Assembly (NCBI GenBank): GCA_000092065.1
Contig: CP000593.1
Source: Ostreococcus lucimarinus
Lineage: Eukaryota
Direction: 5' to 3' (one strand)
DNA length: 64,000 bases
Position numbers and translations under genes: made by a program. Under the pieces are notes generated by a model. The model saw only the letters and a list, made by a program, of their open reading frames with translations, had not been told where the DNA came from and searched no databases. Every line of letters begins with the position of its first letter. The stretch's first letter is position 1. Shown here one piece after another: positions 7,815-63,144 of this stretch.

Positions 7815-8191
7815 CGGTGCTCGCGCCTCGCGTCCGCGTCCGCGTCGGCGTCGGCGTGTGTCGTCGCGTCGCGTCACTTCAAGCCGACGGCACAATCGAT
7901 CGAATCGTTCAATCATGACGACGCGCGAGCCGTTCGGCGAGGGCGTGCCTTTCGGCGACGTGCGTGCGATGCGACGCGACGCGACGCGATCGGGCGCGCG
8001 GACGACGCGGACGCGCGCGACGAGACTGCCGCGAATCGATGGAATTCCGAGGACGGTTACTAACCCGACGGAACGAATGAATCGACGCGACGCGACGCGC
8101 GGACGACGCGACGCGGAGGACTGACGACGGTACGAATCGATGGTCATCACAGCCGTCGTGGTACACGACGTTTAATTCGCCGTATTACACG

Positions 8192-9397
8192 ATGTCGCAC
8201 GCGAAGTTTCGAGACAAGGTGCGAGCGTTCGTGGAGCGGGACATCGCGCCGTACGTGCACGAGTGGGACGAGACGAAAACCATACCTCCAGAAGTGTACA
8301 GAGCGACGTACGCGGCTGGGATATTACCCGCGGTGGTTGGAAAACCGTGGCCGAAGGATTTGGTCCCCGAGTGCGAGGAACCGGAGCATTTTGATTACTT
8401 TCATGAGTTGATCGTCTTTGACGAATTCGCGCGGTGCGGGAGCGGCGGCGTACTTTGGGGACTACTGGAGGGCATACACATCGGTTTGCCACCAGTTTTG
8501 AACTTTGGGAGCGAAGATTTGCGACGAAGGGTAGGAGCTCCGTGCTTGCGAGGGGAAGGGATCATATGTCTGGCGATCACGGAGCCGTACGCCGGCAGCG
8601 ACGTGGCGAACATTCGGTGCGAGGCAAAGTTGGATCCGAGCGGGAAGTTTTATCGAGTGACGGGGGAGAAGAAATGGATCACGAATGGGATTTGGGCAGA
8701 TTATTTCACCGTCGCGGTGCGCACGGGTGGGCCGGGCATGGGTGGGATTTCGCTCCTAGTCATCGAGCGTTCGATGCCTGGCGTGGATTGTCGCCGCATG
8801 GACTGCATGGGCGTTTGGGCGAGCGGCACCACGTTCATCACCTTTGAAGACGTGAAAGTGCCAGTCGAGAATTTGATCGGCAAAGAAAACGAAGGCTTCA
8901 AGTATATCATGCACAACTTCAATCACGAACGTTGGGGGTTTGTGATTCAGGCGAATAGGTTTGCACGCGTGTGCTATGAGGAATCGTTCAAGTACGCGCA
9001 CCGTCGAAGAACGTTTGGTAAGAAACTCATCGAGCACCCAGTGATTCGACACAAACTCGCTGAGATGATTCGACAAGTCGAGGCGACGCATTACTTGCTA
9101 GAGACCATCACCTATCAAATGAATACCATGACGAAGGAAGAATCTTCGAAAGCGCTTGCGGGTATCACCGCGTTGGCCAAAGTGCAGAGCACCAAAGTGT
9201 TTGAATTTTGCGCCAGAGAAGCGGCTCAGGTGTTTGGTGGGGCCTCTTACGTCCGGGGAGGTCAAGGTGAAAAGATCGAGCGGCTCTACCGCGATGTTCG
9301 CGCTTATGCGATCCCGGGCGGGAGCGAGGAGATTATGCTCGATTTAGGTGTTAGACAGGCGATGAAGCAGTGGCAAGTTGCGCAATCGCGTCTCTAG
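8192..9397 (+). CDS. Acyl-CoA dehydrogenase family protein
   Basis: 401 aa with an ATG at 8192. ACAD fold signatures are present (EPYAGSDVANIRCEA, KKWITNG, and the C-terminal QVFGGASYVRGGQGEKIERLYRDVRAYAIPGGSEEIM). TGTAA lies about 10 nt after the stop. Confidence 0.85.
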   Translation: MSHAKFRDKVRAFVERDIAPYVHEWDETKTIPPEVYRATYAAGILPAVVGKPWPKDLVPECEEPEHFDYFHELIVFDEFARCGSGGVLWGLLEGIHIGLPPVLNFGSEDLRRRVGAPCLRGEGIICLAITEPYAGSDVANIRCEAKLDPSGKFYRVTGEKKWITNGIWADYFTVAVRTGGPGMGGISLLVIERSMPGVDCRRMDCMGVWASGTTFITFEDVKVPVENLIGKENEGFKYIMHNFNHERWGFVIQANRFARVCYEESFKYAHRRRTFGKKLIEHPVIRHKLAEMIRQVEATHYLLETITYQMNTMTKEESSKALAGITALAKVQSTKVFEFCAREAAQVFGGASYVRGGQGEKIERLYRDVRAYAIPGGSEEIMLDLGVRQAMKQWQVAQSRL

Positions 9398-9406
9398 CGC
9401 TGCGCT

Positions 9407-9411
9407 TGTAA
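9407..9411 (+). promoter_or_regulatory. TGTAA putative poly(A) signal after the ACAD gene
   Basis: The sequence gcgcTTGTAAtttac lies 10 nt after the TAG at 9395-9397. Confidence 0.4.
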
Positions 9412-9444
9412 TTTACTATCTTTGCTATTCCTAACATTGCTATT

Positions 9445-10788
9445 CTACAATTCGCGCGCGGCTGAGATGAGCTCGCTTGACGACGGAATTTTGTTCTCTA
9501 CTTCTTCGTCGTTGGCTGCGTTTTGCTCGAGAAACGAAATCCACAAGTCTGCGACTGGTACTGGTTTGTTCTCGCCCGTAGCGCCCGTAACTTCGAGTGC
9601 GACGCCTATCGCACCAGCTGCAATGCTCACGGGCGCGCGCGCGATCGTTCCGAGCACACCTCGCTTTTTCTGTCGTCTCTTTAGAGCTTCCATCCGTGCC
9701 TTTTGTTTGTCGGTGAAGCCGAGCATTTTTGCGAGCAAATCGAGCACGTCCTCCGCTCGTTCGCGTTCGAGATAAGCGATGAATAAATCGCTCACTATGC
9801 GCTTATCCAACAATTTCTCACTCTCTACCATCATATCGCTGCTCTTTTGAAGGGCGTGATGGAGCGCTTTCCTGAGCTTACTCGCGTCGCTCGTGGCCTT
9901 GATGCATTCCTCCTTGGCGATTTTCAAGTGAGCCTCAAACTTAGTCAACCTTTCCTCCGCTTCCTTCGCCTTTTCTTTGGCTTCCATGCATGCTGCTCTA
10001 TCAGCAGTCGCCTGCGAGGTGAGTGCGGCTAGCTTTTGTCGTAGATTCGCCGACTCAATGCGCTGCGCGTCCGCGCTCTCGATTTCAGCGTAATATGCCC
10101 CGAGCGCCTTTTGTAAATTTTCCACCTCTTCGTCTCGAGCCTTTATCACCTCCCGCAACCTCGTGACCTCGGCATCGTTTCCACTCATGTTCTTCTTCAA
10201 GTCGCTTAAACGCCGTTCGTATTCTCGCCTTTCCTCCTCTCTCGCCTCGTCTATTTCTCGTTCCTGTTCCTCCGCCACCTCGTCCTCTTCGTCCTCCAGC
10301 GCCAACAAATGTGCCCTCAATTTCTTCAATTCCGTCGCCATCTTGTCGCGCTCACTCCTCAACGTCGCGATCTCTTTCTTGTGTTCGTCCTCCCTCGACG
10401 CATTCCTCGCTAGATCCATCCCCCGCATTCGTTCCGCCTCGCTCGCGCGCTCCGTCAACGCCGCCACCCTTTGCCGCAGTGCCCGCGCATCGTCTCCATC
10501 CGCGCCTTCCGTCGCCCCGCTTCCCTCGTTCATCGCTTCCACGATCGCCGCTGTCTTCGCTTGTTCTTTTTCGACCGCTCGCGCGACGGCCTCGCGCAGC
10601 TTCGCGTCGGCGTCGGCGCGAAACTCGGCGAGTTTTCGTTCAAAATCTATGGAAGCATCCGCGACCGTTTCCGCTTCTGTGGACGACCGCGCGGACGAGG
10701 ACGCGATTTGCGAGGTCTCGCGCGCTTTTTCTCGCTCGCTCACGACTTTCGCGCGAAGTGCGGCGATGCGATCCGCCGCCGACGCCAT
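9445..10788 (-). CDS. Long coiled-coil protein with a possible C-terminal GRIP-like domain (golgin-like)
   Basis: 447 aa with an ATG at 10788. The sequence is E/K/R/A-rich with a heptad character over about 330 aa. The C-terminus IVSDLFIAYLERERAEDVLDLLAKMLGFTDKQK resembles the GRIP consensus (Y..L...E.....L.LL...L.F). Confidence 0.5.
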   Translation of the reverse strand: MASAADRIAALRAKVVSEREKARETSQIASSSARSSTEAETVADASIDFERKLAEFRADADAKLREAVARAVEKEQAKTAAIVEAMNEGSGATEGADGDDARALRQRVAALTERASEAERMRGMDLARNASREDEHKKEIATLRSERDKMATELKKLRAHLLALEDEEDEVAEEQEREIDEAREEERREYERRLSDLKKNMSGNDAEVTRLREVIKARDEEVENLQKALGAYYAEIESADAQRIESANLRQKLAALTSQATADRAACMEAKEKAKEAEERLTKFEAHLKIAKEECIKATSDASKLRKALHHALQKSSDMMVESEKLLDKRIVSDLFIAYLERERAEDVLDLLAKMLGFTDKQKARMEALKRRQKKRGVLGTIARAPVSIAAGAIGVALEVTGATGENKPVPVADLWISFLEQNAANDEEVENKIPSSSELISAAREL

Positions 10789-21944: not shown

Positions 21945-23546
21945 ATGACCGCGCCCGATCTCTCCCGCTTCGACGAAGGCTCGAGCGATGAGGACGATTT
22001 CATCGCTCGCGTGCGCGCGCGCGAGCTCGCCGAGGGCGCCGACGACGCGAGCGCCGCCGCCGACGCGTCGCCGCCGACGACGAGCGGCGGCGGCGGCGAC
22101 GATAAAACCGACGCCGACGCGCGCGTGAGCGCGAATCGCGCGTCCAAGCTCGAACGCGCGCGAGAAAAGAAGCGCAAGGCCAAGCAAGCGCGCGCAAAAC
22201 GGCGTAAACTGGAAGAGGGACGACCGCGAGGAACGGACGAGACGGAAGGCGGCGGCGACGCGGCGAACGCCGACGACGAAGACAAGGTGTTCCACGGCAC
22301 GTTTAACGTCGAGGGCGTGGTGATGAACGACGAATTAGTGCTCGTGGATAAAAAGTCTAAAGCCGTGTACTCGAGCACGGAGCGTACGGCGAATGGGGAA
22401 CACGTCAGGATCGGGACGTGGGACGACGCGACGCAGAGCTATACGTATTGGAAACCGGCGGAGAAGAAAAAGGATGAGAGAAAAGAGAAAGGGGCGGTTT
22501 TGAACGAGCGTGGGGAGACGATACCGGCGATCTTTAAGGGGAACGCGAAGTTAGCGGAAGAATTTAAGGCGCCGGCGGAGGTAGAGCATCCGTTCGAGAC
22601 GGACGCGGACGACCACTGCGAGACGTCGCCTGAGGCGCACGAAAACGTAGCGAATTTCTTAAAGGCGGCGTGCGGGCGCTTGAATAAAACGCCCGCCGAC
22701 CTGGTGATTTATGACCCTTACTACTGCGCCGGAGGTACGCGAAGGAACTTGGCTTTGATTGGATTCACGAACGTCATCAATCGCAACGAAGATTTTTACA
22801 AAGTCATCGAAGAGGGGCGCGTGCCCGAGCACGACGTCTTCCTGACAAATCCACCGTACTCTGCTGACCACATAGAGAAGTGCGTGACGTTTGCGGCAGA
22901 AAATCTTGCTGCACACGGCCGTCCGTACATGCTGCTCTTGCCCTCGTACGTCATTCACAAGGATTACTACCTGCCCGCGTTGCTCACGGGCGGCTCGCGA
23001 GGGAAGGAAAAGGCGAAATCGCTCGAGCTTCAGCGCAAAGACGAGGAAAACAACGAAGATGACGTCGAGGAGAATGACGATGGTATCAAGCGTCACGGTG
23101 GTGGTGCCGCTCGAGCGCAAATCTTGCCATTCTACATCGCGCCGAAGAAGCGTTATTATTATTGGACACCCAAGGCGATGGTGAAGGCGCGCGCCGCCAA
23201 AGGTCAAAGCGAAGAAAGCGCCAAGGCGCGTCGCAAGCGAACGCACATAGGCGCCCTGGGTGAACGTACCTCACCGTTTCTGTCGTTCTGGTACTGCTGT
23301 TTCGGGTCGATGCAGCGCGATGTGTTGGCGTGGCACAAAAAGTTGCCTCGTAGCGAAGTTTGGGGGTACGTGGTGGCGCGACACCCGAACGATTTGCCGC
23401 TCGCCGTGCTAGACGAATGGGATCCGCGCAGGATCGCCGCCATGGAAAAAGCCAAGGCTGATGGAGTGGAAATCCCGCAGCTTAGTTCGTACGCCGGTTT
23501 TACCGGCGCCGCGCAATCCCCAGCCAAGAAGAAATTCTACAAATGA
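21945..23546 (+). CDS. Putative gamma-class amino-methyltransferase-like protein with an NPPY catalytic motif (N6-adenine/HemK-like fold); function unknown
   Basis: 533 aa. LVIYDPYYCAGG (motif I-like, x-D-P-x-x-C-x-G) is followed about 55 aa later by VFLTNPPY (motif IV). The N-terminal 120 aa are acidic/basic and low-complexity. The C-terminal Lys-rich region contains ILPFYIAPKKRYYYWTP. Confidence 0.6.
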   Translation: MTAPDLSRFDEGSSDEDDFIARVRARELAEGADDASAAADASPPTTSGGGGDDKTDADARVSANRASKLERAREKKRKAKQARAKRRKLEEGRPRGTDETEGGGDAANADDEDKVFHGTFNVEGVVMNDELVLVDKKSKAVYSSTERTANGEHVRIGTWDDATQSYTYWKPAEKKKDERKEKGAVLNERGETIPAIFKGNAKLAEEFKAPAEVEHPFETDADDHCETSPEAHENVANFLKAACGRLNKTPADLVIYDPYYCAGGTRRNLALIGFTNVINRNEDFYKVIEEGRVPEHDVFLTNPPYSADHIEKCVTFAAENLAAHGRPYMLLLPSYVIHKDYYLPALLTGGSRGKEKAKSLELQRKDEENNEDDVEENDDGIKRHGGGAARAQILPFYIAPKKRYYYWTPKAMVKARAAKGQSEESAKARRKRTHIGALGERTSPFLSFWYCCFGSMQRDVLAWHKKLPRSEVWGYVVARHPNDLPLAVLDEWDPRRIAAMEKAKADGVEIPQLSSYAGFTGAAQSPAKKKFYK

Positions 23547-45588: not shown

Positions 45589-47151
45589 ATGTCGCGACTC
45601 GCGCGACGTCTCGCGACGTTCGCACGCGATGCACACGCGTCGTGCGCGCGCGTAGATCTTCCGCACGCGCTCGCGCTTCGCGCATCCTCATCCGCCGCCG
45701 GGCCGAGTCCGCGGCGATTCGCCGTCGTCGGCAGCGGTCCCGCGGGCATGTACGCCGTCTTGGCGCTCACGAAGACGTTCGATGGCGCAAAAGTAGACGT
45801 GTTCGAACGCTACCCCGCGCCATTCGGTTTGGTGCGCTACGGTGTCGCGCCCGACCACGCGGAGACGAAGCTCGTGACGAACAAGTTTCATGAAACGCTC
45901 ACGACGCGAGACGACGTCGCGTTTTACGGCAACGTCCAACTCGGGCGAGACGTGAGTTTAGGAGAACTTTATGATAGCTACCACGGCGTCGTGCTCGCGT
46001 GCGGGACGAGCGGAGACAGACGTTTGGAGGTACCGGGAGAGGGCGAACACCGAGGCGTGCTCGGAGCGAGAGAGTTCGTCGCGTGGTTCAACGGCGATCC
46101 CGAACACGGGCCGCAGAGCGCGACGCACGCGGCGGTAGTGGAGGCTTTGCGTAGTCGTGATGGTGATGCACACGTGGCGGTGATCGGGGTCGGGAACGTC
46201 GCCATCGATTGCGCGCGGGTGTTGTTACGAGACGCGGATGCGCTCGCGGGGACGGATATTTGCGAGCACGCGCTGGAGGTGCTGCGCGCCCATCCCGTGC
46301 GCGCCGTGTCCGTGATCGGGCGACGCGGGGTAGCGCAAGCTTCATTTTCACCGAAGGAGTTGCGCGAGCTGTTGAATTTGCGGAACGTAAGAGTGGTGAT
46401 TTCGGACGAGAACCTCACGCTGGAGCCCGAAGACGAAGCCGAGTTGGCGGAGAACAGACCGCGGCGGCGAGCGCACGAGGCGTTCGTCAAGAGAAAGACC
46501 GCAGGGGAGTGTGCGAGCGAGGATGGATGCACAAAAATACTCAATGTGCGATTTCTCGCAAGTCCACTAGCGTTCGGGGGTGAAAATGGTGTGTTGAGTT
46601 GGATGAAGCTCGGTAGGAACGAACTCGTCGGCGCCGCCGGCGCGCGAAAATCCATCGCATCTGGCGAAACGGAGATGGTTCCCACCGCCTTAGCGCTGCG
46701 TTCAGTGGGATATCGTGCAGAACCGATTCAAATGACCGTCAAAGACGAATCCTTGACTCAATTGCGACTGCCATTCGACGAAAAGAATCGCGTTGTGCCA
46801 AACGCGTACGGCGCCGTCGCCGTCTCGGCGGATTCCGCCGATACCATTCCTCGTCTCTACGTCACCGGCTGGCTCAAACGCGGACCAACAGGAATCATCG
46901 GCACCAATCTCACGTGTGCCGACGAAACTATCGCAAAAATGGCTGCCGATTTCGCCGTCGCCCCACCTCCCGATCCTGTCGAGGACGGCGTCGACCGCCT
47001 CCTCGAGAAGCGCGGCGTCCGCGTCGTGCGCGCCGCCGACTGGATTCAAATCGATCGCCTCGAGCGCGAGCGCGGCGCTGCGCGCGGAAAACCACGAGAA
47101 AAGTTTGTCTCCACAGCCGACGCTCTCAAGGCGATCGACCGTAGCTTGTAA
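45589..47151 (+). CDS. FDXR: NADPH:adrenodoxin oxidoreductase (mitochondrial ferredoxin-NADP+ reductase, ARH1/FDXR-like)
   Basis: The motifs are FAVVGSGPAGMYAVLAL (FAD GxGxxG), VFERYPAPFGLVRYGVAPDH and a second dinucleotide fold VAVIGVGNVAIDCARVL. An Arg/Ala-rich presequence precedes them. Confidence 0.85.
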   Translation: MSRLARRLATFARDAHASCARVDLPHALALRASSSAAGPSPRRFAVVGSGPAGMYAVLALTKTFDGAKVDVFERYPAPFGLVRYGVAPDHAETKLVTNKFHETLTTRDDVAFYGNVQLGRDVSLGELYDSYHGVVLACGTSGDRRLEVPGEGEHRGVLGAREFVAWFNGDPEHGPQSATHAAVVEALRSRDGDAHVAVIGVGNVAIDCARVLLRDADALAGTDICEHALEVLRAHPVRAVSVIGRRGVAQASFSPKELRELLNLRNVRVVISDENLTLEPEDEAELAENRPRRRAHEAFVKRKTAGECASEDGCTKILNVRFLASPLAFGGENGVLSWMKLGRNELVGAAGARKSIASGETEMVPTALALRSVGYRAEPIQMTVKDESLTQLRLPFDEKNRVVPNAYGAVAVSADSADTIPRLYVTGWLKRGPTGIIGTNLTCADETIAKMAADFAVAPPPDPVEDGVDRLLEKRGVRVVRAADWIQIDRLERERGAARGKPREKFVSTADALKAIDRSL

Positions 47152-47235: not shown

Positions 47236-48147
47236 ATGCGTCTCGCGTCGAGCGCTTCGTTCGCTTCGCGTCCGAGCGTTCGCGCGCGCTCGACGCGCAA
47301 CGCGAACGTTCGACGCGCAACGCGCCACAGCGCGCGCGCGAACGCCGCCGGCCGCTGGGCGCCGCCGTCGCGGTCGACGACGCAAACGTCGACGGCGTCG
47401 TCGCGTGCGGCGCCGAAACCGCCGCTCGTCGCCGTCGCCGGGCGCGACGTCACGTCGTTCGCATTTGCCGCCGCCGGCGCGGCGCTGCTGACGACGGTGG
47501 GCGCGGTGGCGCCGCTCGTGCGGTCGCTGCGGGAGCTGAGCGCGAGCGTCGACGCGGCGGCGACGGCGGCGGAAAGCGCGGCGAATGAAGTGGAGGCGTT
47601 AGCGAAAAACACTGCGAAGGAGCTACCGGAGACGCTGCAAGCGATGGAAGAGAGCGCGCGAGAGGTGGAGGCGTTGGCGGCGGAAACGCGGGAGGCGTTG
47701 TCGAAATTGGATGCGACGGAGTACGTCGAGTCGCTCGTAAACGATTTCACGGCAAAGATGAAAGATCCGACGAAGGATTTTCGGGATTTGGGAGACGATG
47801 CGACTGAGTACGTCAGGCGTTTGTCGCTTGAGCTCGGGCTAGTCATGCAGAGCGTGGGCATTTATTTAGACGATGGTGCGTTTGACGAAGACGCGAAGAA
47901 TTTGAGCGCGGCGGAAAAGGCGCGGCGGAAGAACGCCCTCACAGAGGCAATCTCAGCGGCGAAGGAAACGACGGAGAGCGCGGCAAAACTGTCGACGCAA
48001 CTGCAAGGCGCGGCCAACGGTGAATCTAAAGGACGAGATCTAGCAGAAATCGTGGGAAAGATTGCGCTCGCGAGCAAGCAGGTATCGACGGCGATGACAA
48101 GAGTCGTCGAGAGCACGTCGGAGAGTTTCCGTTCGACGGATGAATGA
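47236..48147 (+). CDS. Hypothetical alpha-helical protein with an organelle presequence
   Basis: The ORF-track ORF starts at GTG 47197; the first ATG is 47236 (MRLASSASFASRPSVRARSTRNANVRR…). The mature part is A/E/K-rich and helical (apolipoprotein/LEA-like). No family recognised. Confidence 0.4.
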   Translation: MRLASSASFASRPSVRARSTRNANVRRATRHSARANAAGRWAPPSRSTTQTSTASSRAAPKPPLVAVAGRDVTSFAFAAAGAALLTTVGAVAPLVRSLRELSASVDAAATAAESAANEVEALAKNTAKELPETLQAMEESAREVEALAAETREALSKLDATEYVESLVNDFTAKMKDPTKDFRDLGDDATEYVRRLSLELGLVMQSVGIYLDDGAFDEDAKNLSAAEKARRKNALTEAISAAKETTESAAKLSTQLQGAANGESKGRDLAEIVGKIALASKQVSTAMTRVVESTSESFRSTDE

Positions 48148-48190
48148 CGGATTCAGATTTTATGATTTTTTAACGCGCAAATATTATGTA

Positions 48191-50899
48191 CTATAAAATC
48201 CTACGCGGTTTCGGTGGACTCCAGAACACCTTTTCAGGCGTTCGCAAGGGCGTGTGGAATAGTTCCACCTCAGGATCGTCCACGCGAACTAAAGTCTGAT
48301 ACTCGTCTGTATCGTTGCCTTCGATGAGCCGTGTGAACTGCTCGCCGAACGTTTCCCAATACCAATCGAGGAACAAGTTATGAGTCACGCGCTTGCTAAC
48401 AACCATTCGTTGCATCTCTTCGCGCTGCCGAATCGCGTTCCGCCAACGTGTGAAGTAATGATTACGCGTGGCGAACTGGTGCGACGCGCGCATCTTGACG
48501 AGAGCGACCATTTGCGCCCGCCACATGCCGCGCCAAATCGCGAAACTTCGGCGCAGTCGAGACTGTCGTTGGCGGTTAAAGATGGCTAACGCGCTCACAG
48601 CGATCAACTTAGAGTGCTCTTGAGTGGCGAACTTCCATTGGTTCCACGAACTCAACAACACACGTTGACGCCATCTCGTTAGCGTCGCCGCTACGCTTCG
48701 TCTCTGCGTTCTCAACGTATGCGTGCGGTATCTCCAGCCTTGGAACGCTCTCAACAGTTCGTAACGACGTAGTTTGTTCATAAACTTTGAGACAGTGTGT
48801 TTACGGAACGCAGACTTGATCGTTTGTGATCGCCAAGCGTCGAAATTCGCTCGAATATATTTGAACCGCAACGACGCCATCGCGTGCACGACGCCTCTCT
48901 GATGTTGTTCCTCGCGCTGCCGTCGCGCACTCAGCATTTTCCAATTATGGAAGACGATTCGCGTTGTGTTATTTTTCATGCGTTCCCGCGTGACGGCATA
49001 CATCTTTTCGCGATGCACCCGTACGAATCGAGCAGTCGTTCTCCATGCGAAAAAGTGAAGCTTCGTCAGCGTCTTGCGTGAGTCCTTGTTCCAGCACAGT
49101 AACACGCCGTTGTACGTCTTCTTTGCATGACGTGAATCGTCCACGACTTCTTTCCACTTCAAAAACGCTGCGCATGCGGTGCGGTTATCCCAGCGCGCGA
49201 ACGTCCGCATCAGACGTTGAGTGAAACTTTTTCTCTCTTCCGCTCGGTTCTTCCAACACTCAAACGCGTCAAACATCAGACGCTCACGCATCTTGTGCAC
49301 CGCGAGACGCTGAATCTTTGCGACATGCTTCCCTCGTTTCGCGTACAAATACCACGATACGAACACTTTTTGCTTCAGCTCTCTGGATTTATCAGTCAAC
49401 GCACGTCTATGCGCCCTCGCGGCTATTCGACGCGTTTGATTTGATTCCGAAGCACACGACTTCCATCTATCAAAGAATTGTCGAGCAAGACTCTCGCGTC
49501 GCCTCGCGCTCAACAGCGCGTCCCTCTCGCGCTTCAACTTTCGAGTGTTCGCGTAATTCTTCCAAGCATCAAACGCCGCGCCGAGACCTCGTCTATCAGC
49601 CCGTAATAAGAACCGAACGACGCCGACGCGCTTTCGACGTTCCTTATCCGCAAACGCTCTCCACCTTTTAAAAGTTTCATCCCTGAACGCGCGTGCAGAC
49701 GTCCGCGTCATGCGCTCTATCGCTTTCACCTGAACCGCTTGAACGCGCTTTCGCATCTTTTGCTGCATCGTCTTGCGCATTGTCTTCAAAGCTTCATTGT
49801 TGATAGACTCAAACTCTAACTGTACCGTTTGTACCGAGTTCATCCAGCTCTTCTCCACTATTTTCAGCTCTTCTCGCAAACCTTCCAGCTCCCGCTCCAC
49901 ACCGCGACGGATTTCAATTTCGTCTTTGAATATGCGCGTCCACTTTTCTACTATGGCGGCGGAAAGCCAACTTGGTGCAGACTCGGCCGGTTTCGGTGGC
50001 TCGATCAACACGGGTTGCTGTTCGACTCGCTTCTGTTTCGATTTTGGCTTCGACGGCGACGCGTTTGCTGCGGCGCTCGGACTCGGTGGCGCCGCCAAAG
50101 GTTTTAGATTGAGCACCGACGATTCGGATTCCGTGTCACTGCCGTAGTACGACGTCCCATATTCCACGTACGCCAAATCATCGTCGTAGAGACTCATATC
50201 ATCCAACGCATACTTTGGCAAAAACTCCTTCGGCACCTCCACCACCGCGGCGTTGATCGTCACGTGCTCGAAGCGTCTATTCCTAAACAGCATCGCCCGT
50301 CCGTACGTCGCACGCTCGTGATCGACGCTCACCAGTTCCCATTGTTCGCACACTCCAAAGTTGTAGTTGTAAAAGCACAGCTCGCTCGCAGCCTTGCGTC
50401 TCGCTTGCAAAAGCTTCCCCCCCGCCGCGTGCGAACGAAACCCGTAGAATTCGCCAAATCTCAGCACCACCAACTGCGTCGACGCGTCTCTCGCCGTGAG
50501 CATCAACGAATCGATGTCCGCGCCACCCCCACTCGCCGACGTCGACGTTGAAACTCCGTCTCGCCGAAGCGTCGCGCACGAAAACTCCAGCGCGCGCTTC
50601 CCCTCCGTCGCCGCCGGCGCGTCGTTCGCGCGCGTCGACCGACCGCCGCCGTCCCGCGCCGCGTACATCCCTCGTCCTTCCCTCGCCCCGAGCGCGTACA
50701 TCGCCACGCAGCTTCCCGCGCGCAGCGGCGCGTTCGAGTCCTCTCGCGAAGCGTCGTCATCGTCCGCGGAAACGACGGCGGCGCCGACGACGTCCCAAAA
50801 ACTTCGCTCCGCGGTGGTGGCTCCAGAGCTCAACAATCCAATCTCTTTCGCGGCGACGTCGCGCGTCGTTCGCGCGACGTCTCTCGCGCGCGACGGCAT
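48191..50899 (-). CDS. Sfi1-like centrin-binding repeat protein (basal body/centrosome half-bridge type)
   Basis: The C-terminal about 550 aa consist of around 20 tandem repeats of roughly 23-33 aa, each ending in [FLW]-x2-W-[KR]. Examples are AFDAWKNY, FFDRWKSC, VFVSWYLY, AFECWKNR, AFLKWKEV, HFFAWRTT, VFHNWKML, NFDAWRSQ, AFQGWRYR, TLTRWRQR, SWNQWKFA, SFAIWRGM and YFTRWRNA, which is the Sfi1 centrin-binding repeat signature. The ORF is open to 51337 but overlaps the upstream gene, so ATG 50899 is used. The start is uncertain. Confidence 0.6.
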   Translation of the reverse strand: MPSRARDVARTTRDVAAKEIGLLSSGATTAERSFWDVVGAAVVSADDDDASREDSNAPLRAGSCVAMYALGAREGRGMYAARDGGGRSTRANDAPAATEGKRALEFSCATLRRDGVSTSTSASGGGADIDSLMLTARDASTQLVVLRFGEFYGFRSHAAGGKLLQARRKAASELCFYNYNFGVCEQWELVSVDHERATYGRAMLFRNRRFEHVTINAAVVEVPKEFLPKYALDDMSLYDDDLAYVEYGTSYYGSDTESESSVLNLKPLAAPPSPSAAANASPSKPKSKQKRVEQQPVLIEPPKPAESAPSWLSAAIVEKWTRIFKDEIEIRRGVERELEGLREELKIVEKSWMNSVQTVQLEFESINNEALKTMRKTMQQKMRKRVQAVQVKAIERMTRTSARAFRDETFKRWRAFADKERRKRVGVVRFLLRADRRGLGAAFDAWKNYANTRKLKRERDALLSARRRESLARQFFDRWKSCASESNQTRRIAARAHRRALTDKSRELKQKVFVSWYLYAKRGKHVAKIQRLAVHKMRERLMFDAFECWKNRAEERKSFTQRLMRTFARWDNRTACAAFLKWKEVVDDSRHAKKTYNGVLLCWNKDSRKTLTKLHFFAWRTTARFVRVHREKMYAVTRERMKNNTTRIVFHNWKMLSARRQREEQHQRGVVHAMASLRFKYIRANFDAWRSQTIKSAFRKHTVSKFMNKLRRYELLRAFQGWRYRTHTLRTQRRSVAATLTRWRQRVLLSSWNQWKFATQEHSKLIAVSALAIFNRQRQSRLRRSFAIWRGMWRAQMVALVKMRASHQFATRNHYFTRWRNAIRQREEMQRMVVSKRVTHNLFLDWYWETFGEQFTRLIEGNDTDEYQTLVRVDDPEVELFHTPLRTPEKVFWSPPKPRRIL

Positions 50900-55106: not shown

Positions 55107-56333
55107 ATGGCGTCGACGCGCGCGATCGCGGGCGCGGGATCGCGAATCGACGCGAATCGACGCGACGCTCGCGAGCGCGCCGCGCGCGTCGCTCGACCGG
55201 CGACGCGACGCGCGCGCGACGACGACGCGGCGGAATCGGAATCGGTGTCGGAACCGGGGTCGCGCGCGCACGCCGGCCCGCACGACGTCGTCGTGAAGCG
55301 CACGACGCCGCGACCGACGCGCGCGGTGGCGCGCACGGGCGCGGTGGCGACGAAGAGCGCGAAGGCGCACCGAAGGCAGCGCGCGTGGGCGCCGGACGCG
55401 CTGGAGTTTCACGGGCTGGTGCGGGCGCGGCGGGAAGATTTGGGGACGCGCGCGAACGAGGACGAGAGGGAAAGATTCCCGTACGGCGATGGATTCGCGT
55501 TCGCGAGGGCGACGTGCGAGACGGAGACGATGGTGGCGCTCGCGACGGCGATGGTCGGGGAAGAGCGACGCATGCGGCTGGAAAACGTTTTGGAGCATAG
55601 AAGTTTTTCGTTGCTGCCGATTCTAGAGGGCGTCTACGACGTCGGCAATATCTTGGCGGTGTGTCGGACGACGGAGGCGCTGGGGATCGGGTGCGCGTCG
55701 ATCGTGAGCTCGAAGGGGCTGTCGTTCAAGGCGAGCGGGAGGACGTCGGGAGGGGCGCTGAAGTGGCAACACGTGGAGCAGTTTGAGACGTCGGAACGCG
55801 CGCTCAGAGTCGCGAAGGCGAAAGGATACCGCGTTCTTACGACTGAGTTTGACGGCGCGCAGCCGCTGTCGCATTACGATTGGACCGTGCCCACGGCGGT
55901 GGTGTTTGGGAACGAGCGCGAGGGGGTTTCGGACGAGGCGCGAGCGCTGCGGGATGGCGCCGTGTACATTCCGATGTTTGGCTTCACCGAGTCTTTGAAC
56001 ATTTCCGTCGCCGCCGCGCTCGTGATGTCGCACGCCGTGACGGACCGGATCAACCGCCGAGGGTTTCACGGCGATTTGACTGAGGAAGAAAAACGTATTT
56101 TGCGCGGCGTGTACATGTCTAGGTTGATACCGAACTACGCAAAGCAAGGATATCTCGAAGAACTCGTCGAGCGTCATAGAAAGGGTCAAAAGCTCGCGGT
56201 GACGGACGACATCGATGTGAGCGAGGAAACACTCGACGAAATTGAATTGTTGACCGAACTGGACGCGGCCAAGTTGGTCGGTAGGCGCAAGCCGAAACGA
56301 GACCTGGGATGGGACGAGCACCTGGACGGTTGA
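55107..56333 (+). CDS. SpoU/TrmH-family RNA 2'-O-ribose methyltransferase (rRNA Gm methyltransferase MRM1-like)
   Basis: The SPOUT blocks are FSLLPILEGVYDVGNILAVCRTTEALGIG, TAVVFGNEREGVSDEA and IPMFGFTESLNISVAAALVM. The Arg/Ala-rich N-terminus may be a presequence. TGTAA lies about 33 nt after the stop. Confidence 0.8.
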   Translation: MASTRAIAGAGSRIDANRRDARERAARVARPATRRARDDDAAESESVSEPGSRAHAGPHDVVVKRTTPRPTRAVARTGAVATKSAKAHRRQRAWAPDALEFHGLVRARREDLGTRANEDERERFPYGDGFAFARATCETETMVALATAMVGEERRMRLENVLEHRSFSLLPILEGVYDVGNILAVCRTTEALGIGCASIVSSKGLSFKASGRTSGGALKWQHVEQFETSERALRVAKAKGYRVLTTEFDGAQPLSHYDWTVPTAVVFGNEREGVSDEARALRDGAVYIPMFGFTESLNISVAAALVMSHAVTDRINRRGFHGDLTEEEKRILRGVYMSRLIPNYAKQGYLEELVERHRKGQKLAVTDDIDVSEETLDEIELLTELDAAKLVGRRKPKRDLGWDEHLDG

Positions 56334-56381: not shown

Positions 56382-58244
56382 CTACTTTCGTCTTCTGCTG
56401 CGACTAGAGGTACTTTTATTAGCAGGCGGAGTCGGCTCCACCGTTTTTCGTTTCTTCTTGTTGTCCGCGACTTCCGGTTCTGGTTTAGCGGGCGGCTTCG
56501 CTTCTTCTTCCGTCTTTGGCGGCTCCGGAGCTTCTTCAGCCGGCGGAGGCGCGGCTCGCTCCGGCGCTTTGTCCGTGTCCTTCGGCGCTGGACGGAACGG
56601 AACGTACGGAATACCTTGCGCCGCGCAGCACTCTGGGCAGGCAAACTTGACGTTTTCGGCGTTTTCGTCTTCCTCGCCCGGCGCCGGCGACTGCATGCCG
56701 ATGCACTCGTAATGAAACCAACCATCGCATCGATCGCAGCAAATCATCGGCCTGAGAGCGTCGTACGCGCTTCGGCAAACGCAATACAGTTCGCATCGCT
56801 CTCCCAACTCCTCGAGCTCCTCCTTCAAGTATAAAGGCAAAGATCGACCCTCTTGAAGCAGCAACTGCGCCGCCTCGATAGGAATCGTTTTGTCTTGCAC
56901 GACGGCGGCGGCGCGTTCGAGCCAGATTTGTCCAGCAACCTCCAACGCGTGCGCGCGATCGGCCAAAGGATCAATGCCGGCACCAGGGCAAAGACCAGCA
57001 GCCATGGCAGATTCCTTGAGCTCGTGAAGCTTGATCAACCTCGGGAACGGCGCACCAGTCATGAGCCGCGTGGCTTGTTCTCTCCACGCCGGACCGCACA
57101 CTTCGCGCATCAACGCGAGCGTCTCCTCAACAGGTTCCAGCTCCATCGCCAGAGCACCCTTCATGCCCGCGTACACTTGCAGCGCTGGATCGACATTATC
57201 TTTTCGAGGAATGTCATACGTGTAATCCATCTCTTGCTTGGGCATTCCAGACGCGTCGCCGACAAGCGATGGCATGGCCGGTTGCAACATGAACTGCTGC
57301 GGAACCATCATCGGTTCGTTCGTCTTCAACTGAGCAGACATATCGCTTGGACTACCATGACCCGTGGATGTTGAAGGTTCTTTGCCGGTGTCTTGCGCCG
57401 TCGGCGGCGGCATCATGCCAGACATTCCAGATAGTTGCAGAGTCGCTTCCATGAGCCAGTTGCTAGCGCCAACATTTGCCAGCTCTTCCTCGTGCTCGTT
57501 TGTCATCTTTAGATGCTGTTGCTGCATCATCAAGACGTGGAGGATGTGGGGCCTAGACCGAACTGGAGCCATGTGAATTTGAGCTTGGCACATCGCGAGT
57601 TGCATGGCGAGCTGTTGAAGTTGCCCGAGCTGCTTTGTGACGACATCTGAAATCTCCTGCGAACACGGCGAAATGTTCAACGCGTGCGTGCGCTGCGTTG
57701 CGGCGAACGTGACAGCTTGACCCATCAGCATGACTTGCTGTAATGGCGTGAGAGAAGCTGGAGGATTGGGGTTCTCTGCAGTCGCCGCGAGCGACGCTTC
57801 GGCGATTCGTCGTGTGCGTTCCTCAGATTCTCTCATCGCTGCTTCTTGGGCAATCTTCGAAGCTTGACTGATGGCGTTGTCGTGTGCTTCCTTCATACTC
57901 TTTCTATGCAAAGTCTTTCGTACTTCCAATCGCCACGCGTCGTGAGTATTGATGACTTGATTCAACACGGCTTCTTCTGGCACTTCTCCAGGAAATCGCT
58001 GCGCTTCACCGAGGAGTTCTCGCAAAAGCATGACGTTTGGGCGATTGGTGCGATGCACCGAGCGATACGTATCCAACGAGAGTGCGCTCGCCTTGCCACT
58101 CTTCGCGATGCATGGCGGACAGATGTAATTGTGCATCGTCTTTGCCATAGTAGGCGTCACATTGATACATTTTAAGTGATACCAGTCACCGCAATCATCA
58201 CATCCAACCATTTGAATTCCTCCAGCTTGTCGACAAAGGCAGAA
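56382..58244 (-). CDS. In-frame continuation of the JARID/KDM5-like reading frame downstream of a TAG: PHD finger at the extreme N-terminus, Q/M-rich low-complexity middle, second PHD finger and a basic tail
   Basis: This is the same frame as ORF 58245-61904. Immediately after the TAG (58245-58247) the frame encodes FCLCRQAGGIQMVGCDDCGDWYHLKCINVTPTMAKTMHNYICPPC, a complete C4HC3 PHD finger of the YCICRQ…CDxCxxWFHxxC type. The ORF-track ORF starts only at the internal Met 58211, which would leave the finger without its first Cys pair. A second PHD is LYCVCRSAYDALRPMICCDRCDGWFHYECIG…KFACPECC. Whether this is translated as part of the upstream protein is unresolved. Confidence 0.5.
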   Translation of the reverse strand, partial: FCLCRQAGGIQMVGCDDCGDWYHLKCINVTPTMAKTMHNYICPPCIAKSGKASALSLDTYRSVHRTNRPNVMLLRELLGEAQRFPGEVPEEAVLNQVINTHDAWRLEVRKTLHRKSMKEAHDNAISQASKIAQEAAMRESEERTRRIAEASLAATAENPNPPASLTPLQQVMLMGQAVTFAATQRTHALNISPCSQEISDVVTKQLGQLQQLAMQLAMCQAQIHMAPVRSRPHILHVLMMQQQHLKMTNEHEEELANVGASNWLMEATLQLSGMSGMMPPPTAQDTGKEPSTSTGHGSPSDMSAQLKTNEPMMVPQQFMLQPAMPSLVGDASGMPKQEMDYTYDIPRKDNVDPALQVYAGMKGALAMELEPVEETLALMREVCGPAWREQATRLMTGAPFPRLIKLHELKESAMAAGLCPGAGIDPLADRAHALEVAGQIWLERAAAVVQDKTIPIEAAQLLLQEGRSLPLYLKEELEELGERCELYCVCRSAYDALRPMICCDRCDGWFHYECIGMQSPAPGEEDENAENVKFACPECCAAQGIPYVPFRPAPKDTDKAPERAAPPPAEEAPEPPKTEEEAKPPAKPEPEVADNKKKRKTVEPTPPANKSTSSRSRRRK

Positions 58245-58247
58245 CTA

Positions 58248-61200
58248 ACCCTCCTCCGTCTCCGGCGGTTCGCCAGTCCCGGTGATGTCTTCCACACCAG
58301 CTTTGATGGAATCAAGAACATTGCTCAACATTTCGATAAGCGTTTTTTCTTGTTTGACTTCACCCTGATCGTTTGCCCAGAGCAACGCGTTGAGCCTCTC
58401 CGTCCACGCCGTGGCGGCGTTGCACGCATTTGTGAGCGCTTGTCTCTCTGAGCACTTGAAGGTCAAATCTTCCACCTCCGCTAGAAGATCGTATAATTCG
58501 TCAATCGAAGGGCGAGATCGACCTTCAGCGACACTGTTCAAGCACTTACGAACGGTGTCGACCCACTGTGCGTGATCCGCCAACGACGCCTCGAGGTCTT
58601 CTACCTTCGAGACGTCAGCGGGAAGTGCCTTGCCTTCGGCGATGAGGGCGTCTATTTCCTCCGGTGATGCACTCGGAGCCAATCGACCGTCTTCAAGGAG
58701 AGGAGGATCGAGCAAACGATCCGCTTTCTTGCGCCATTCGTCCACAATCGTGTACCGTTTCATGATTTCAGCGACAAGATCCTCTTTCAAGTCTTGAAGC
58801 ACGTCGATTTCTTCCCTGAGCTCGTCCAAAACGGTGTCCTCGACGAGCTTCGCCTTGGGTGCAATGATCTTAGCGACGCGTTCTTCCCACTTGAGCGACT
58901 TTAAACGAATGCGAACTGTCTCCATGGCTGGTAATTCTAATCCAAAGTCTTCGTGCGAAAGTTCAAGCTCGGTCAACGTCACCTCGGCGCCGTCTTCTCG
59001 CCAGCGCTCGATGGCGTCCTTCGCGTCCACGTCCCACTCTTCTGCGGCTTCGACGCGTTCTTCCAAAGCTTCAACTTCCTTGACAAACAATTTCAAGTTC
59101 GAAGACTCTTTCATGAGCTCTTGCGCCTCGGAAAGCGGCGGAATCGGATTTGACACACCGCGACGAGTGAGCTGCTTTCCCTTCAAACAAGGTTGTGCAC
59201 GATCCAACCAAGACTTGGCTACATTGACCGCTTCTGAAAGCACGTCGAATCCATTCAGAAAGATTGGAATCGAGCTTCCTTCGCGGATGAGCGACGCGGC
59301 GTCTTCGAGTGACGGTCGGTCCTTACTATCGAGAGATTTGAGCATCACCGCCGCGCGCTCGTTCCACTTCTTCGCCGCGTTGATGTGGCTCTCGCACTGC
59401 GCCAGCAGCGCTTCTTCATCTGGGGCAACCTCTTTATCTTCGGAGTCGAGGAACTCGTTACCCGCCCGCACGGCCGCTTCGACTTCGGCGAGCGGATATT
59501 TCTTCGATGAAACCATGTCCTTCAATTTCTCTGCCAGCTCCCGGACGACGATACGGTTTCGCAACCACTCGACTTCGTCCACTCGCACGCTAAACTTTTC
59601 ACCCTCGACGAGAAGCATGTGCAAATCCGTCACTCTTGCTCCCGGATAATCACTCGCTCGAGCATGATCGGCCCACACTTTGACAGCTTTGATTTGATCG
59701 GCTAGTCTGTCGACCTCGTCGAGTTTTGTTGACAACGCCATGCCCTCCTTGAGAAGCGCCTCGGCTTCTTCCACGTCAACCTTGGCGACGAACAGCGACT
59801 CAGACTTTGCGCGCCAAAAATTCAACTCTTCTAAAGATTTGCGCAAAGTCAAGAGTTCGCTCTGCTGAACGGGTAATCCATGCGCCTCTTCGTATAACGC
59901 CTCGATCTCTCGAGCATTCGCTAGTTCCTCGCGCGGCGGGAGTTGTCGTCGTCCTGGAAGCGCGCCGCGCACCTTCGTGGACCACGCGCCTGCTCTAACG
60001 ATGACGTCCTTCAGCTTTTTATATGAAGGGACTTCCACACCAAACTTATTCGCTTCAGTTTGAAGCGTCGTACAAGCGCGAGGAGATGGATTCGGTACCT
60101 CGGCGAGAGCCGCCTTGATGCGTTCCTCCAATTTCAAGCCCGCCGCGAGCAAATCGCGGAAAGGTTGAGTATCAGCCTTAGGCATCGGTACCGGTGGGTT
60201 GTCAAGGAGCTCTTTTAGTCTGTTCAATCTCAATCGCGCTTCACCAGCGTCATCGTGCGCGGCCTCGGCACCAGCACTGGATCCAAGCCTTTGCTTCAGC
60301 GCCACAAGACTCGTCTGCCACGCGACGGCGTTCGTCACGCGAGTGTACGCTTCTCGAGCCGCCTTCATATCAGCACCACCCCAAATAAACTCTTCACCCG
60401 CAGCGAGTAAATTTCTCATCTTGTCCAGCGGCGGCAAAGGTGGTTTGACGAGCTCTTCGCCCACTCGTTTCACCCAAGCCTGAGCCTTCTTGACGAGATT
60501 CTTGTTCACTGTGACTGAGTCCAAGTCGCTGTGCTTGGATTTTAAGCTGGCTAGTTCCTTCTGAGAAAGCGCCTTCTCCGTCTTCTTCACCAGACTTTCT
60601 AAATCAGCCACTGTTTCTCTGTAAAACATCGTCTTCTTCGACATCGCACATTTGCACAAGTCGTTGACGTGTCGCAAGCACGCCTTGCGCGTCTCGTCGC
60701 ACGAGCACCCGACGCCAGACGAGTACAAAATGTGTCGACAAACAACGCACTCATCGGATCCAGAGTTCGATGCATCGTCAAACCTAGATCGTACTTTACG
60801 AGGCTTTTCGCAGCCATCGTCGTCGTCGTCGTCGTCTGCTGACGTCATTTGCGCGCTGCGCGTCACGCCAGACGCGAAAAGCTCGGCGCGACCGTTTGCC
60901 TCTTCAGCGTACAAGCGCGCAATCTCGGGCCACAAGTGCGGCGCTATGCTCGAACTAGGATTGTTTGCTACTCTGCAAACCAACTCGTCGTGACTAAACA
61001 ATGAACGCTTGGCGTACGATCGGTTTCTCTCCACGCTCGCCGAGCCCTCTGGGAGCCAGTCAGCGGGCACAAAGTTGACGCTCTCCGTGCAGTTCAATCC
61101 ACAGTTGAACGACGCGTAGTACGCCCCGGGATACGTCACCACGTATTCTCCTGGGAATTGCTCCAACGTGTGCACGGGCACTCCCGCGCTCATCAAGAAG

Positions 61201-61911
61201 CTCGGCGAGAGCATCGTAAAGACGCTTCCCAAATCGTTGACGTGCGCCTCGTAGACGTCGGGCATCACCTTCTGGAAGCATTCTTCCAACTTGTCCGCTG
61301 CACTCGCCGGCACGCAGTACCACAGTTTCGCGGCACCCCAGTGATTGTAAGTGATACTGTACATGTTATGCTCTTCTCGACGCCAAGTCGTGGAACTAAA
61401 CGTGCTTCCGACTTCTAAGAATGGCGTCGTCACGCCCGCCACGTCATCCTTCAACGCGCCCAGTAGCGACGACTTTTCCCCACTCGCGCGCGCGACGTTG
61501 TTGAGATTCCATTTCGACTCTGACCAGCGCTTGATAGATTCCGGGCTCACGCCGTCAATCTTTACCTGAAGCGCTTCGCCGTGTCTCGGGAACCCGCTTC
61601 CGTACTTTGTCGTGTCAATCGCCGTGCCGCATTTGACCTCGCAAACATCATCCACCGAGCTCGCATCTTCAACCATTCGCCAGAAACACTCCTCAATCAC
61701 CTGCATATCGATCCCAGTTCGCTTGGCGTCCTCGCCAAAGAACGCCGTATCAAATTCTATGCACGCCTCGTTGAAATCGCCGAGCGTAAACTGCGTCCCT
61801 TCATCCGCGCTCAATCGCTCCACCTCCGCGTCAATCTCTTCGCATCGTCCACAAAACCACTCTCCACTCGGCACTTCAGTCATCTTCGGCGTTAAGCAGT
61901 ACATATGTGAC
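58248..61911 (-). CDS. JARID/KDM5-architecture protein, main exon: second half of PHD1, JmjC domain with both Fe(II)-ligand histidines substituted, C5HC2 zinc finger, long PLU-1-like helical region
   Basis: The JmjC core is TTWRREEHNMYSITYNHWGAAKLWYCVP…FPGEYVVTYPGAYYASFNCGLNCTESVNF, compared with KDM5A [28 protein letters not shown]…[27 protein letters not shown] as recalled (His to Arg and His to Tyr at the two His ligands, Glu retained). The C5HC2 is CVVCRHILYSSGVGCSCDE…CLRHVNDLCKC. The frame ends at TAG 58245-58247. Confidence 0.75.
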
Positions 61912-62119
61912 CTACGCGCGCATCATTCGTCAGTCTCGTCGCTCCTTCGCGGCTCCTTCTCCCCCGCGCGCCTCTAAACCCCACGTCTAACCGTCGCCCA
62001 CGCGCGCGTTCGCCGCGCCCTCGCGCGCCGCGCGAGCGCTCTCTCTCCCCGAACGCGCGTCCGAACGATCGAGATAATTTTCACGCGCGCGTTCTCGCGT
62101 GGCATTGTCGTATACGCAC
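61912..62119 (-). other. Spliceosomal intron (208 nt, GTGCGT…GCGTAG) splitting PHD finger 1 of the JARID/KDM5-like gene
   Basis: The upstream exon ends …CDVCGASGNEDAMILCDGCDRG (gg|gtgcgt). The downstream exon begins G|SHMYCLTP…EWFCGRC. Joined they give CDVC-x11-CDGC-DRGS-H-MY-C-x15-C-x2-C, a canonical PHD. The branch-point-like GAGACTGACGAA lies about 20 nt before the AG. The unspliced upstream frame hits a stop at 61987. Confidence 0.7.
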
Positions 62120-63144
62120 CCTCGATCGCACCCATCGCACAGGATCATCGCGTCTTCGTTCCCGCTCGCGCCGCACACGTCGCAGTCGGCGTCGCCCTCG
62201 GGCGCGTCCGCGAGCTGCGAGGCGACGAGATCGAGGCCCTGCGTCGCGAAAACACGCGCCGTAAAAGTCAGTCGCACGTCATCGCGACGCCCATCATCGC
62301 GCGCGCGCGTCGCACGCGCCGCGAACGCGTGCGATTCGCCGTCATCCCGGTCCCGCGCGAAGAAGATATGGCACGAATTACGCACATTTTCCACCTTGAC
62401 TCGCCGTTCGGGCGCGCCCGACGCCCCAAATTCGAGCCCACACAGCGCATCGATCGCCAGCGCGTCATCTTGTTCGATCTCTCCCTTCACCGCGTCGAAC
62501 TGCGCGCTCTTCACCGCGTCTTCTCTTCGCTTGGCGTCGCGCGCGAACGCCTCCAGCCACGCCCCGTGCAGCGCTCTCGCCGCGTGTCCCGCCGCGCATC
62601 CGCGTCCGTGCGCCCCGATCGCCTCCGCGACCTCGCGCCAGCCTTGATTTCCATCGATCGCGTCCGCGCCACCGCGTCTTTTCACCTCCTCGTACAGCGC
62701 GCGCAGGTCGAAGCGCCATCCTCGCACTCGATGGATGCGCCAACTCGCCCCTCGCGGCGCGCGTTCGTCCGGTCGCGACGCCCTGTGTCGCTCGTATTCG
62801 TCCCTGAACGGCACGCGCATGTCGACGGACGCGTCTCGCGCGCACGCCCCGAGCGCGCGGACCGGCTGCGTGCGCGCGGTGAACGACCACGCGCGCAAAT
62901 CGAGGGCGAACGCGCCGCGGTCGCGATGGCGGAGACCTCGCGCGTCGTCGTCGTCGTCGTCGTGCGCGATCGTGAGCTTGCCGATGCCGCACGCGCGGGC
63001 GTCGACGGCGGCGAGATCATCGAGGGCGTCGACGACGCCGGCCTCCGGGCGCGCGGACGCGCACGGCGCGCGCGACGGGGCCCGCATCGACCGCCGTCGC
63101 GAAATGCGGTGCGCGCGCGACGCCCGCGCGAGACGCGCTCGCAC
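62120..63144 (-). CDS. JARID/KDM5-like gene, upstream exon: ARID domain and first half of PHD1; 5' end and start codon unresolved
   Basis: The ARID-like block is RFDLRALYEEVKRRGGADAIDGNQGWREVAEAIG…ALHGAWLEAF. This is followed by DADCDVCGASGNEDAMILCDGCDRG. The N-terminal about 100 codons of the ORF are Arg/Ala-rich and may be non-coding. No clear JmjN was found; further 5' exons cannot be excluded. Confidence 0.55.

Follow-up and report, generated by a model that had tools for sequence, protein, structure and literature searches.

What does a single in-frame TAG codon, standing directly before a well-formed PHD finger, mean for a KDM5/JARID1-like gene of Ostreococcus lucimarinus CCE9901? The question arose from an earlier reading of the stretch of DNA analyzed here (64,000 nucleotides of contig CP000593.1, hereafter the window), which was made without database searches and which left a nonsense mutation, stop codon readthrough, a sequencing or assembly error, and a 51-nt micro-intron as possible explanations. 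We conclude with high confidence that a true nonsense allele is at hand, a change of one nucleotide that turns CAG (Gln) into TAG, is private to CCE9901, and truncates its KDM5 homologue. The sequence-only reading had taken the source to be a Micromonas strain; ten ORFs of the window were looked up and gave exact matches to O. lucimarinus CCE9901 proteins, XP_001422834.1 and XP_001421121.1 among them.

Gene structure and domain architecture

On the minus strand of the window, a 1219-aa ORF (61904..58245, counted from its first Met) has the C-terminus ...GTGEPPETEEG, and its end reads ...IKAGVEDITGTGEPPETEEG and then TAG. Directly after the TAG, the same frame continues as FCLCRQAGGIQMVGCDDCGDWYHLKCINVTPTMAKTMHNYICPPC, reads FCLCRQAGGIQMVGCDDCGDWYHLKC...YICPPC over a C4HC3 PHD finger, and stays open for 620 codons to a natural stop at 56384-56382. 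The ORF map and Pfam thus bear out the description that had raised the question, namely, that an in-frame TAG ends the 1219-codon frame, that a complete C4HC3 PHD finger follows straight after it, that a second PHD finger lies further along this frame, and that the first Cys pair falls between the TAG and the first downstream Met. The downstream frame is open, as had been stated, but its length had been given as 609 codons, which is the count from the first Met at 58211. The name "JARID-like" was also well chosen, as the Pfam JmjC, C5HC2, and PLU-1 domains show, but the gene begins further upstream than the 1219-codon ORF, with an exon that is joined to it through a 208-nt intron (Table 1).

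Table 1. Features of the KDM5/JARID1-like locus, in window coordinates
Feature	Position	Strand	Remarks
Exon 1, KDM5/JARID1-like gene	63087..62120	-	ARID and first half of PHD1; GC 70.6%
Real intron, 208 nt	62119..61912	-	GT..AG, phase 2, donor GTGCGTA, branch GACTGACG 18 nt before AG
Exon 2 upstream of the stop	61911..58248	-	Second half of PHD1, JmjC, C5HC2 zinc finger, PLU-1; still encoded in CCE9901
JmjC	~61418..61071	-	Pfam PF02373, E=2.8e-31, residues 163-278 of the 1219-aa ORF
C5HC2 zinc finger	~60749..60591	-	Pfam PF02928, E=5.6e-14
PLU-1	~59366..58383	-	Pfam PF08429, E=1.3e-61
Proposed 51-nt micro-intron	58295..58245	-	Encodes VEDITGTGEPPETEEG and the stop; rejected
Premature TAG	58247-58245	-	Codon 1545 of the spliced CDS, ~2165 codons in total
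Cut-off C-terminus, 620 codons and natural stop	58244..56382	-	PHD2, helical PLU-1-like stretch, Q/M-rich region, PHD3
PHD2	58244..58110	-	Full-length Pfam PHD match (profile 1-47 of 47) to downstream-frame residues 2-45; E=4.6e-16
609-aa ORF	58211..56382	-	Starts at the first Met downstream of the TAG; "predicted protein" in GenBank/RefSeq
PHD3 (second PHD after the TAG)	56786..56628	-	Pfam

Splicing of exon 1 to exon 2 rebuilds PHD1 across the junction (CDGCDRG/SHMYC, with the slash at the junction), and the spliced finger is recognized by Pfam with E=1.1e-12. The exon 1 ORF was also called in contig L003. In the protein encoded by the two joined exons, Pfam further finds an ARID domain (E=1.6e-6; score 28.9 bits, cut-off 24.1). 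KDM5_C-hel (PF21323, E=7.3e-7) is likewise found before the TAG. No JmjN match was obtained from Pfam at E<=1 within the first 438 aa, where the N-terminus is very GC-rich and divergent and the start codon is putative. Judged by its domains, which follow the order ARID-PHD1-JmjC-C5HC2-PLU1-PHD2-PHD3, the gene is a KDM5/JARID1-type H3K4 demethylase homologue, and from its membership in this family, H3K4me2/3 demethylase activity is predicted. Because the upstream exon is joined through the intron, the TAG becomes codon 1545 of a CDS of ~2165 codons. In CCE9901, the C-terminal PHD fingers are not contiguous with PLU-1, as the TAG stands between them, whereas in all wild conspecific and congeneric sequences examined they are.

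The codon at the site in wild relatives

A protein homology search with the junction region and with the PLU-1 region yielded two fragmentary relatives, through which the first orthologous contigs were reached, but not the almost identical 1841-aa representative of the cluster. Metagenome contigs were scanned with the flanking sequence as the query and with the stop codon left free, and 12 contigs were returned. Two of these are conspecific and both carry CAG (L005, 99.85% identity over 12.6 kb; L013, 99.49% over >12 kb), while the other 10, which have 72 to 77% nucleotide identity over the gene, all carry CAA. Ten more conspecific contigs (L017-L026, 99.84 to 99.86% over exon 2) were reached through the fused 1841-aa ORF, and every one has CAG. 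Glutamine is therefore encoded by CAG in 12/12 wild O. lucimarinus-type contigs, which represent five haplotypes and are 99.6 to 99.9% identical over exon 2 at the DNA level. The changed base is 58247, where the coding strand has T in the window and C in all wild conspecific contigs, in a non-CpG context.

One haplotype of the fused 1841-aa ORF (P0047) is by itself indexed in 57 sample blocks, Tara Oceans included. Wild O. lucimarinus and the other Ostreococcus-like lineages have exon 2 as a single ORF of ~1840 codons. The distant Ostreococcus-like contigs share their gene neighborhood with the window and, where the locus is long enough, have the frame open for 1224 to 1230 codons upstream and 610 to 613 codons downstream of the CAA. 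One such protein (P0123, 1809 aa, 72% identity) is continuous across the site, where it reads ...ETEEGQFCLC... within ...GNGEPPETEEGQFCLCRQ..., and partial cluster proteins that span the site have Q in every case; among the 265 members of this protein cluster, 40 were examined, and a rare wild TAG allele may exist among the rest. In remote homologues of 1400 to 2300 aa, PHD2 lies deep within the protein and is preceded by an acidic linker, and the residue that stands where the TAG falls is variable (L, V, or N). Two contigs (L001 and L002) have single-base indels relative to other contigs of their own lineages, which are probably assembly errors, and they were used solely for the codon at the site.

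Comparison with orthologues had been proposed in the sequence-only reading, which held that a sense codon at this position would point to an assembly error or a strain polymorphism. A sense codon was found, CAG in the conspecific wild contigs and CAA in other Ostreococcus-like lineages, and the site is a strain polymorphism, so that the option of a real nonsense mutation is the one we favor. The allele would have arisen by a C-to-T transition on the coding strand at 58247, converting CAG to TAG either in the sea or in culture.

Downstream of the site, 7/7 polymorphisms among the 12 wild contigs are synonymous and none is nonsynonymous, which points to constraint on the C-terminal region in natural populations. 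The point changes in exon 2 that are private to CCE9901 are the stop, S1371, and I1624; none of the three is located before the stop, and there is no synonymous change among them. A poly-D run is one Asp shorter. Judged from outgroups, I1624 is the derived state. We considered whether these changes reflect decay or relaxed constraint of an orphaned C-terminus and set the idea aside, as so few changes do not allow the claim, wild sequences also vary at position 1371 (A or T), and other wild fragments have nonsynonymous variants as well.

Evidence from a second read set and from reference records

A single base is all that separates the codon in the window from that in every wild contig, and draft genomes do contain single-base errors, so the strain might truly carry CAG and the T at 58247 might be an artefact of the reference. 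We consider this scarcely probable, for three reasons.

First, a Logan contig of 18.9 kb from run SRR1179203 (SRR1179203_456) shares 10,815 bp with the window at 100% identity, and it has the TAG together with the identical 1219-aa and 609-aa ORFs. The same run has a second allele, a 533-aa ORF ~35 kb away, for which the NCBI record and one more Logan run are the only other sources in the collection, and for this reason SRR1179203 is probably CCE9901 DNA. The 2007 O. lucimarinus assembly was presumably Sanger-based, and such traces are not SRA runs, which is why we take SRR1179203 to be independent of it. Since the TAG is reproduced in this contig, it is unlikely to be an artefact of the reference assembly alone. 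A literature search on SRR1179203, on resequencing of CCE9901, and on premature stop codons in O. lucimarinus found nothing relevant.

Second, several genes of the window have twin NCBI accessions. Chromosomes 9 and 13 are reported to have contributed duplicated parts that fused into CCE9901 chromosome 21 (PMC2367439), and the window probably lies in this chromosome 9/13-21 duplicated segment. The twin records ABO99414.1 and ABP01192.1 (XP_001421121.1 and XP_001422833.1 in RefSeq) agree exactly in their Met-started 609-aa model, and since no such model would have been predicted without the stop, both copies appear to carry the TAG.

Third, CCE9901 has other private differences in the same gene, and S1371, I1624, and the loss of one Asp from the poly-D run show that the window carries a real, distinct natural haplotype. 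A sequencing or assembly error, one of the options raised at the outset, therefore recedes, and a nonsense allele that is present in the strain itself accounts better for these records.

Splicing and readthrough as ways around the stop codon

If the TAG is real, it could still be bypassed. Rescue splicing would do so if a short in-frame intron, either the 51-nt candidate (Table 1) or another, removed the stop from the mRNA. The in-frame GT..AG pair of the candidate does exist, just as had been described, and within it GACTGGCG matches the branch consensus of the species, GACTGACG, at 7/8 positions, but the sole mismatch is the branch adenosine itself. The pair is also uninformative on counting, because 76 in-frame GT..AG pairs of 30 to 400 nt span the TAG by chance, and CTRAY motif and GTGCG donor are both absent from all 76 candidates. 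Outside chromosome 2, O. lucimarinus introns confirmed by ESTs share the 5' consensus GTGCGTG, and 87% of them contain ACTGAC, often as GACTGACG (PMC2483917). In contrast to the real intron of this gene, with its GTGCGTA donor and GACTGACG branch site, the candidate has the donor GTGGAAG.

The 16 codons before the stop are conserved in three other lineages as I/V-E-D-I/V-T-G-T/N-G-E-P-P-E-T-E-E-G-Q, where the corresponding peptide is IEDVTGTGEPPETEEGQ, IEDITGTGEPPETEEGQ, or IEDITGNGEPPETEEGQ; changes within them are synonymous or conservative, and their conservation is above the average of the gene. Moreover, the codon is open in wild conspecifics, which implies that there is no intron at this place in the species. 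One class of Ostreococcus introns would accommodate the length of the candidate, as the short non-canonical introns in the low-GC region of chromosome 2, the "outlier chromosome" of the Mamiellales, measure 40 to 65 bp (PMC2367439, PMC2483917). Unlike these short introns, the candidate lies in conserved coding sequence and, as the twin accessions suggest, in the chromosome 9/13-21 duplicated segment, so an assignment to the chromosome 2 class was rejected. The sequence-only reading had itself rated the micro-intron as weak; with 16 codons conserved as protein and no splice signals of O. lucimarinus, we reject it and regard rescue splicing by any short intron as extremely improbable.

Readthrough of the TAG could in principle yield a useful amount of full-length protein, as the downstream frame is fully open and nearly unchanged and every stop codon leaks slightly. 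Neither the context of the stop nor the fold of the downstream sequence supports this option. UAG-UUC-UGC is not known to be a readthrough motif (known ones include UAG-CARYYA and UGA-CUAG), and the 121-nt stretch that begins at the stop has a fold no more stable than that of its shuffled versions (z=+1.27), with 184/200 shuffles at least as stable. A tRNA scan of the whole window for a suppressor tRNA found no tRNA gene. The stop is absent from every relative examined, and a stop confined to a single strain cannot have acquired an evolved readthrough signal. Readthrough at a useful level is very improbable, although leakage at a basal rate, a fraction of one percent, would suffice for some full-length protein.

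The annotated downstream protein

GenBank annotates the sequence after the TAG as a gene of its own, and a gene fission, with the 609-aa ORF expressed alone from the Met at 58211, would agree with its listing as protein XP_001421121.1 / XP_001422833.1 and with the presence of an ATG only 11 codons past the stop. A protein begun at this Met, however, would have a C4HC3 finger without its first Cys pair and without the aromatic residue before that pair, which in PDB alignments corresponds to the Y of the H3K4me3-reader fingers of Spp1 and CFP1. Elsewhere, this sequence is internal to proteins of 1800 to 2300 aa. Reinitiation after an ORF of 1544 codons is not expected in eukaryotes, which likewise counts against expression from the downstream ATG. 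We therefore see very little chance that the gene has split in this manner. The 609-aa model is better explained as an annotation by-product of the stop, that is, as the orphaned C-terminus of the KDM5 homologue and not as an independent gene.

Predicted consequences of the nonsense allele

Under the nonsense allele that we favor, translation in CCE9901 would end at codon 1545 and give a protein of 1544 aa out of ~2165. This predicted product would keep ARID, PHD1, JmjC, the zinc finger, and PLU-1 and would lose PHD2 and PHD3. Among solved structures, both of the lost fingers come closest to PHD fingers that bind H3K4me3, namely, the entries for Spp1, CFP1, BPTF, ING4, TAF3, DIDO1, PHF2, and PHD3 of KDM5A/B, and by this resemblance, any targeting that depends on such readers would probably be lost along with them. 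The transcript may in addition face nonsense-mediated decay, which would lower the amount of mRNA. In KDM5 enzymes, the catalytic core can work without the C-terminal fingers, while those fingers help in targeting to chromatin, and for this reason, the CCE9901 allele is expected to be a hypomorph rather than a null.

More far-reaching consequences can be imagined. The truncation may not be neutral, in that it could alter H3K4 methylation in CCE9901 and be either a culture-selected or a naturally segregating regulatory variant, or the orphaned C-terminus could be expressed separately after all, in which case a gene fission would have been caught at its first step. We consider it improbable that either of these holds.

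Our finding is an ordinary one, an annotation correction with a strain caveat, and it adds no new biological mechanism. In the reference annotation of CCE9901, one KDM5/JARID1 gene is split into two models, and the entry XP_001421121.1 / XP_001422833.1, which UniRef lists as "PHD-type domain-containing protein," contains the C-terminal part alone, one of its fingers crippled, and should not be counted as a member of the family. Work on chromatin or epigenetics in CCE9901 (CCMP2972) deals with a KDM5 homologue that is without the C-terminal PHD fingers found in wild populations, and for comparative studies, the 1841-aa exon 2 ORF of the environmental contigs is the wild-type sequence of the species to use.

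Relation to known systems

The gene has close parallels in the KDM5/JARID1 family. It shares with human KDM5A-D, Drosophila Lid, and Arabidopsis JMJ17 the domain order ARID-PHD1-JmjC-C5HC2-PLU-1-PHD2-PHD3, which Pfam recovers here, and JGI as a source labels the relatives "histone demethylase JARID1." It differs from these proteins in that exon 1 gives no Pfam JmjN at E<=1 and in that the CCE9901 protein ends after PLU-1. The allele, in turn, resembles the strain-private premature-stop alleles of reference and laboratory strains, with the same kind of single-base stop, its absence from the wild conspecifics examined, and two annotated models in place of one gene, and we find no feature that distinguishes the CCE9901 case from this class.

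Age of the stop and private alleles of the reference strain

Several genes across the window carry twin GenBank/RefSeq accessions, one in the ABO99xxx and one in the ABP01xxx series (examples in the table), and this pattern fits a location of the window in a duplicated segment of the CCE9901 genome, with one copy on chromosome 9/13 and the other on chromosome 21. The 609-aa model, which follows the in-frame TAG that splits exon 2 of the KDM5 homologue, is identical from both copies of the segment, and the stop is therefore probably older than the duplication.

The stop is not the only private allele of the reference strain, as is evident from the distribution of the 533-aa ORF. Outside NCBI, the reference allele of this ORF occurs only in the Logan-assembled runs SRR1179203 and SRR23274481, while a sister allele is found on 328 contigs; both runs probably derive from CCE9901 itself. 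Within exon 2 of KDM5, a poly-Asp run has seven Asp residues in CCE9901 versus eight in 12 of the 12 O. lucimarinus-type wild contigs, a 3-bp GAC indel. Downstream of the stop, we observed two more amino-acid differences private to CCE9901, at residue 1371 (S, with A or T in the wild) and at residue 1624 (I, with L in every wild contig and L or V in other Ostreococcus-like lineages).

Contigs L001 (ENA NODE_1698) and L002 (JGI Ga0494229_05909), from more distant Ostreococcus-like lineages, have fragmented gene calls because single-base indels, relative to other contigs of their own lineages, break the frame at 9907-10330 and 10330-10520, respectively. These indels are probably assembly errors.

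Base composition and neighboring gene models

GC content changes abruptly within the KDM5 gene, from 70.6% in exon 1 (GC3, 80%) and 66.8% in the intron to 54.9% in exon 2 (GC3, 62%), and the 2-kb bins adjoining exon 2, at 63 to 69%, lie far above it. Two further low-GC bins were seen in the window.

Features of the window discussed in the text
Feature	Position	Strand	Remarks
ORF	1122-3338		Twin accessions
Low-GC bin	8001-10000		GC 54%
533-aa ORF	21945-23546	+	Twin accessions
Adrenodoxin-reductase ORF	45589-47151	+	520 aa; 467-aa forms elsewhere
Low-GC bin	48001-50000		GC 52%
SpoU/TrmL-like ORF	55107-56333	+	408 aa; NCBI model, 216-aa partial; twin accessions
609-aa model	56382-58211	-	Twin accessions
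KDM5 gene	56382-63087	-	Abrupt GC change
Residue 1624	57035	-	Private difference
Residue 1371	57794	-	Private difference
Poly-Asp run	60837	-	Private difference

The reference models of the SpoU/TrmL-like and adrenodoxin-reductase genes do not match the full ORFs in metagenomes, and other annotations of the region may need revision.
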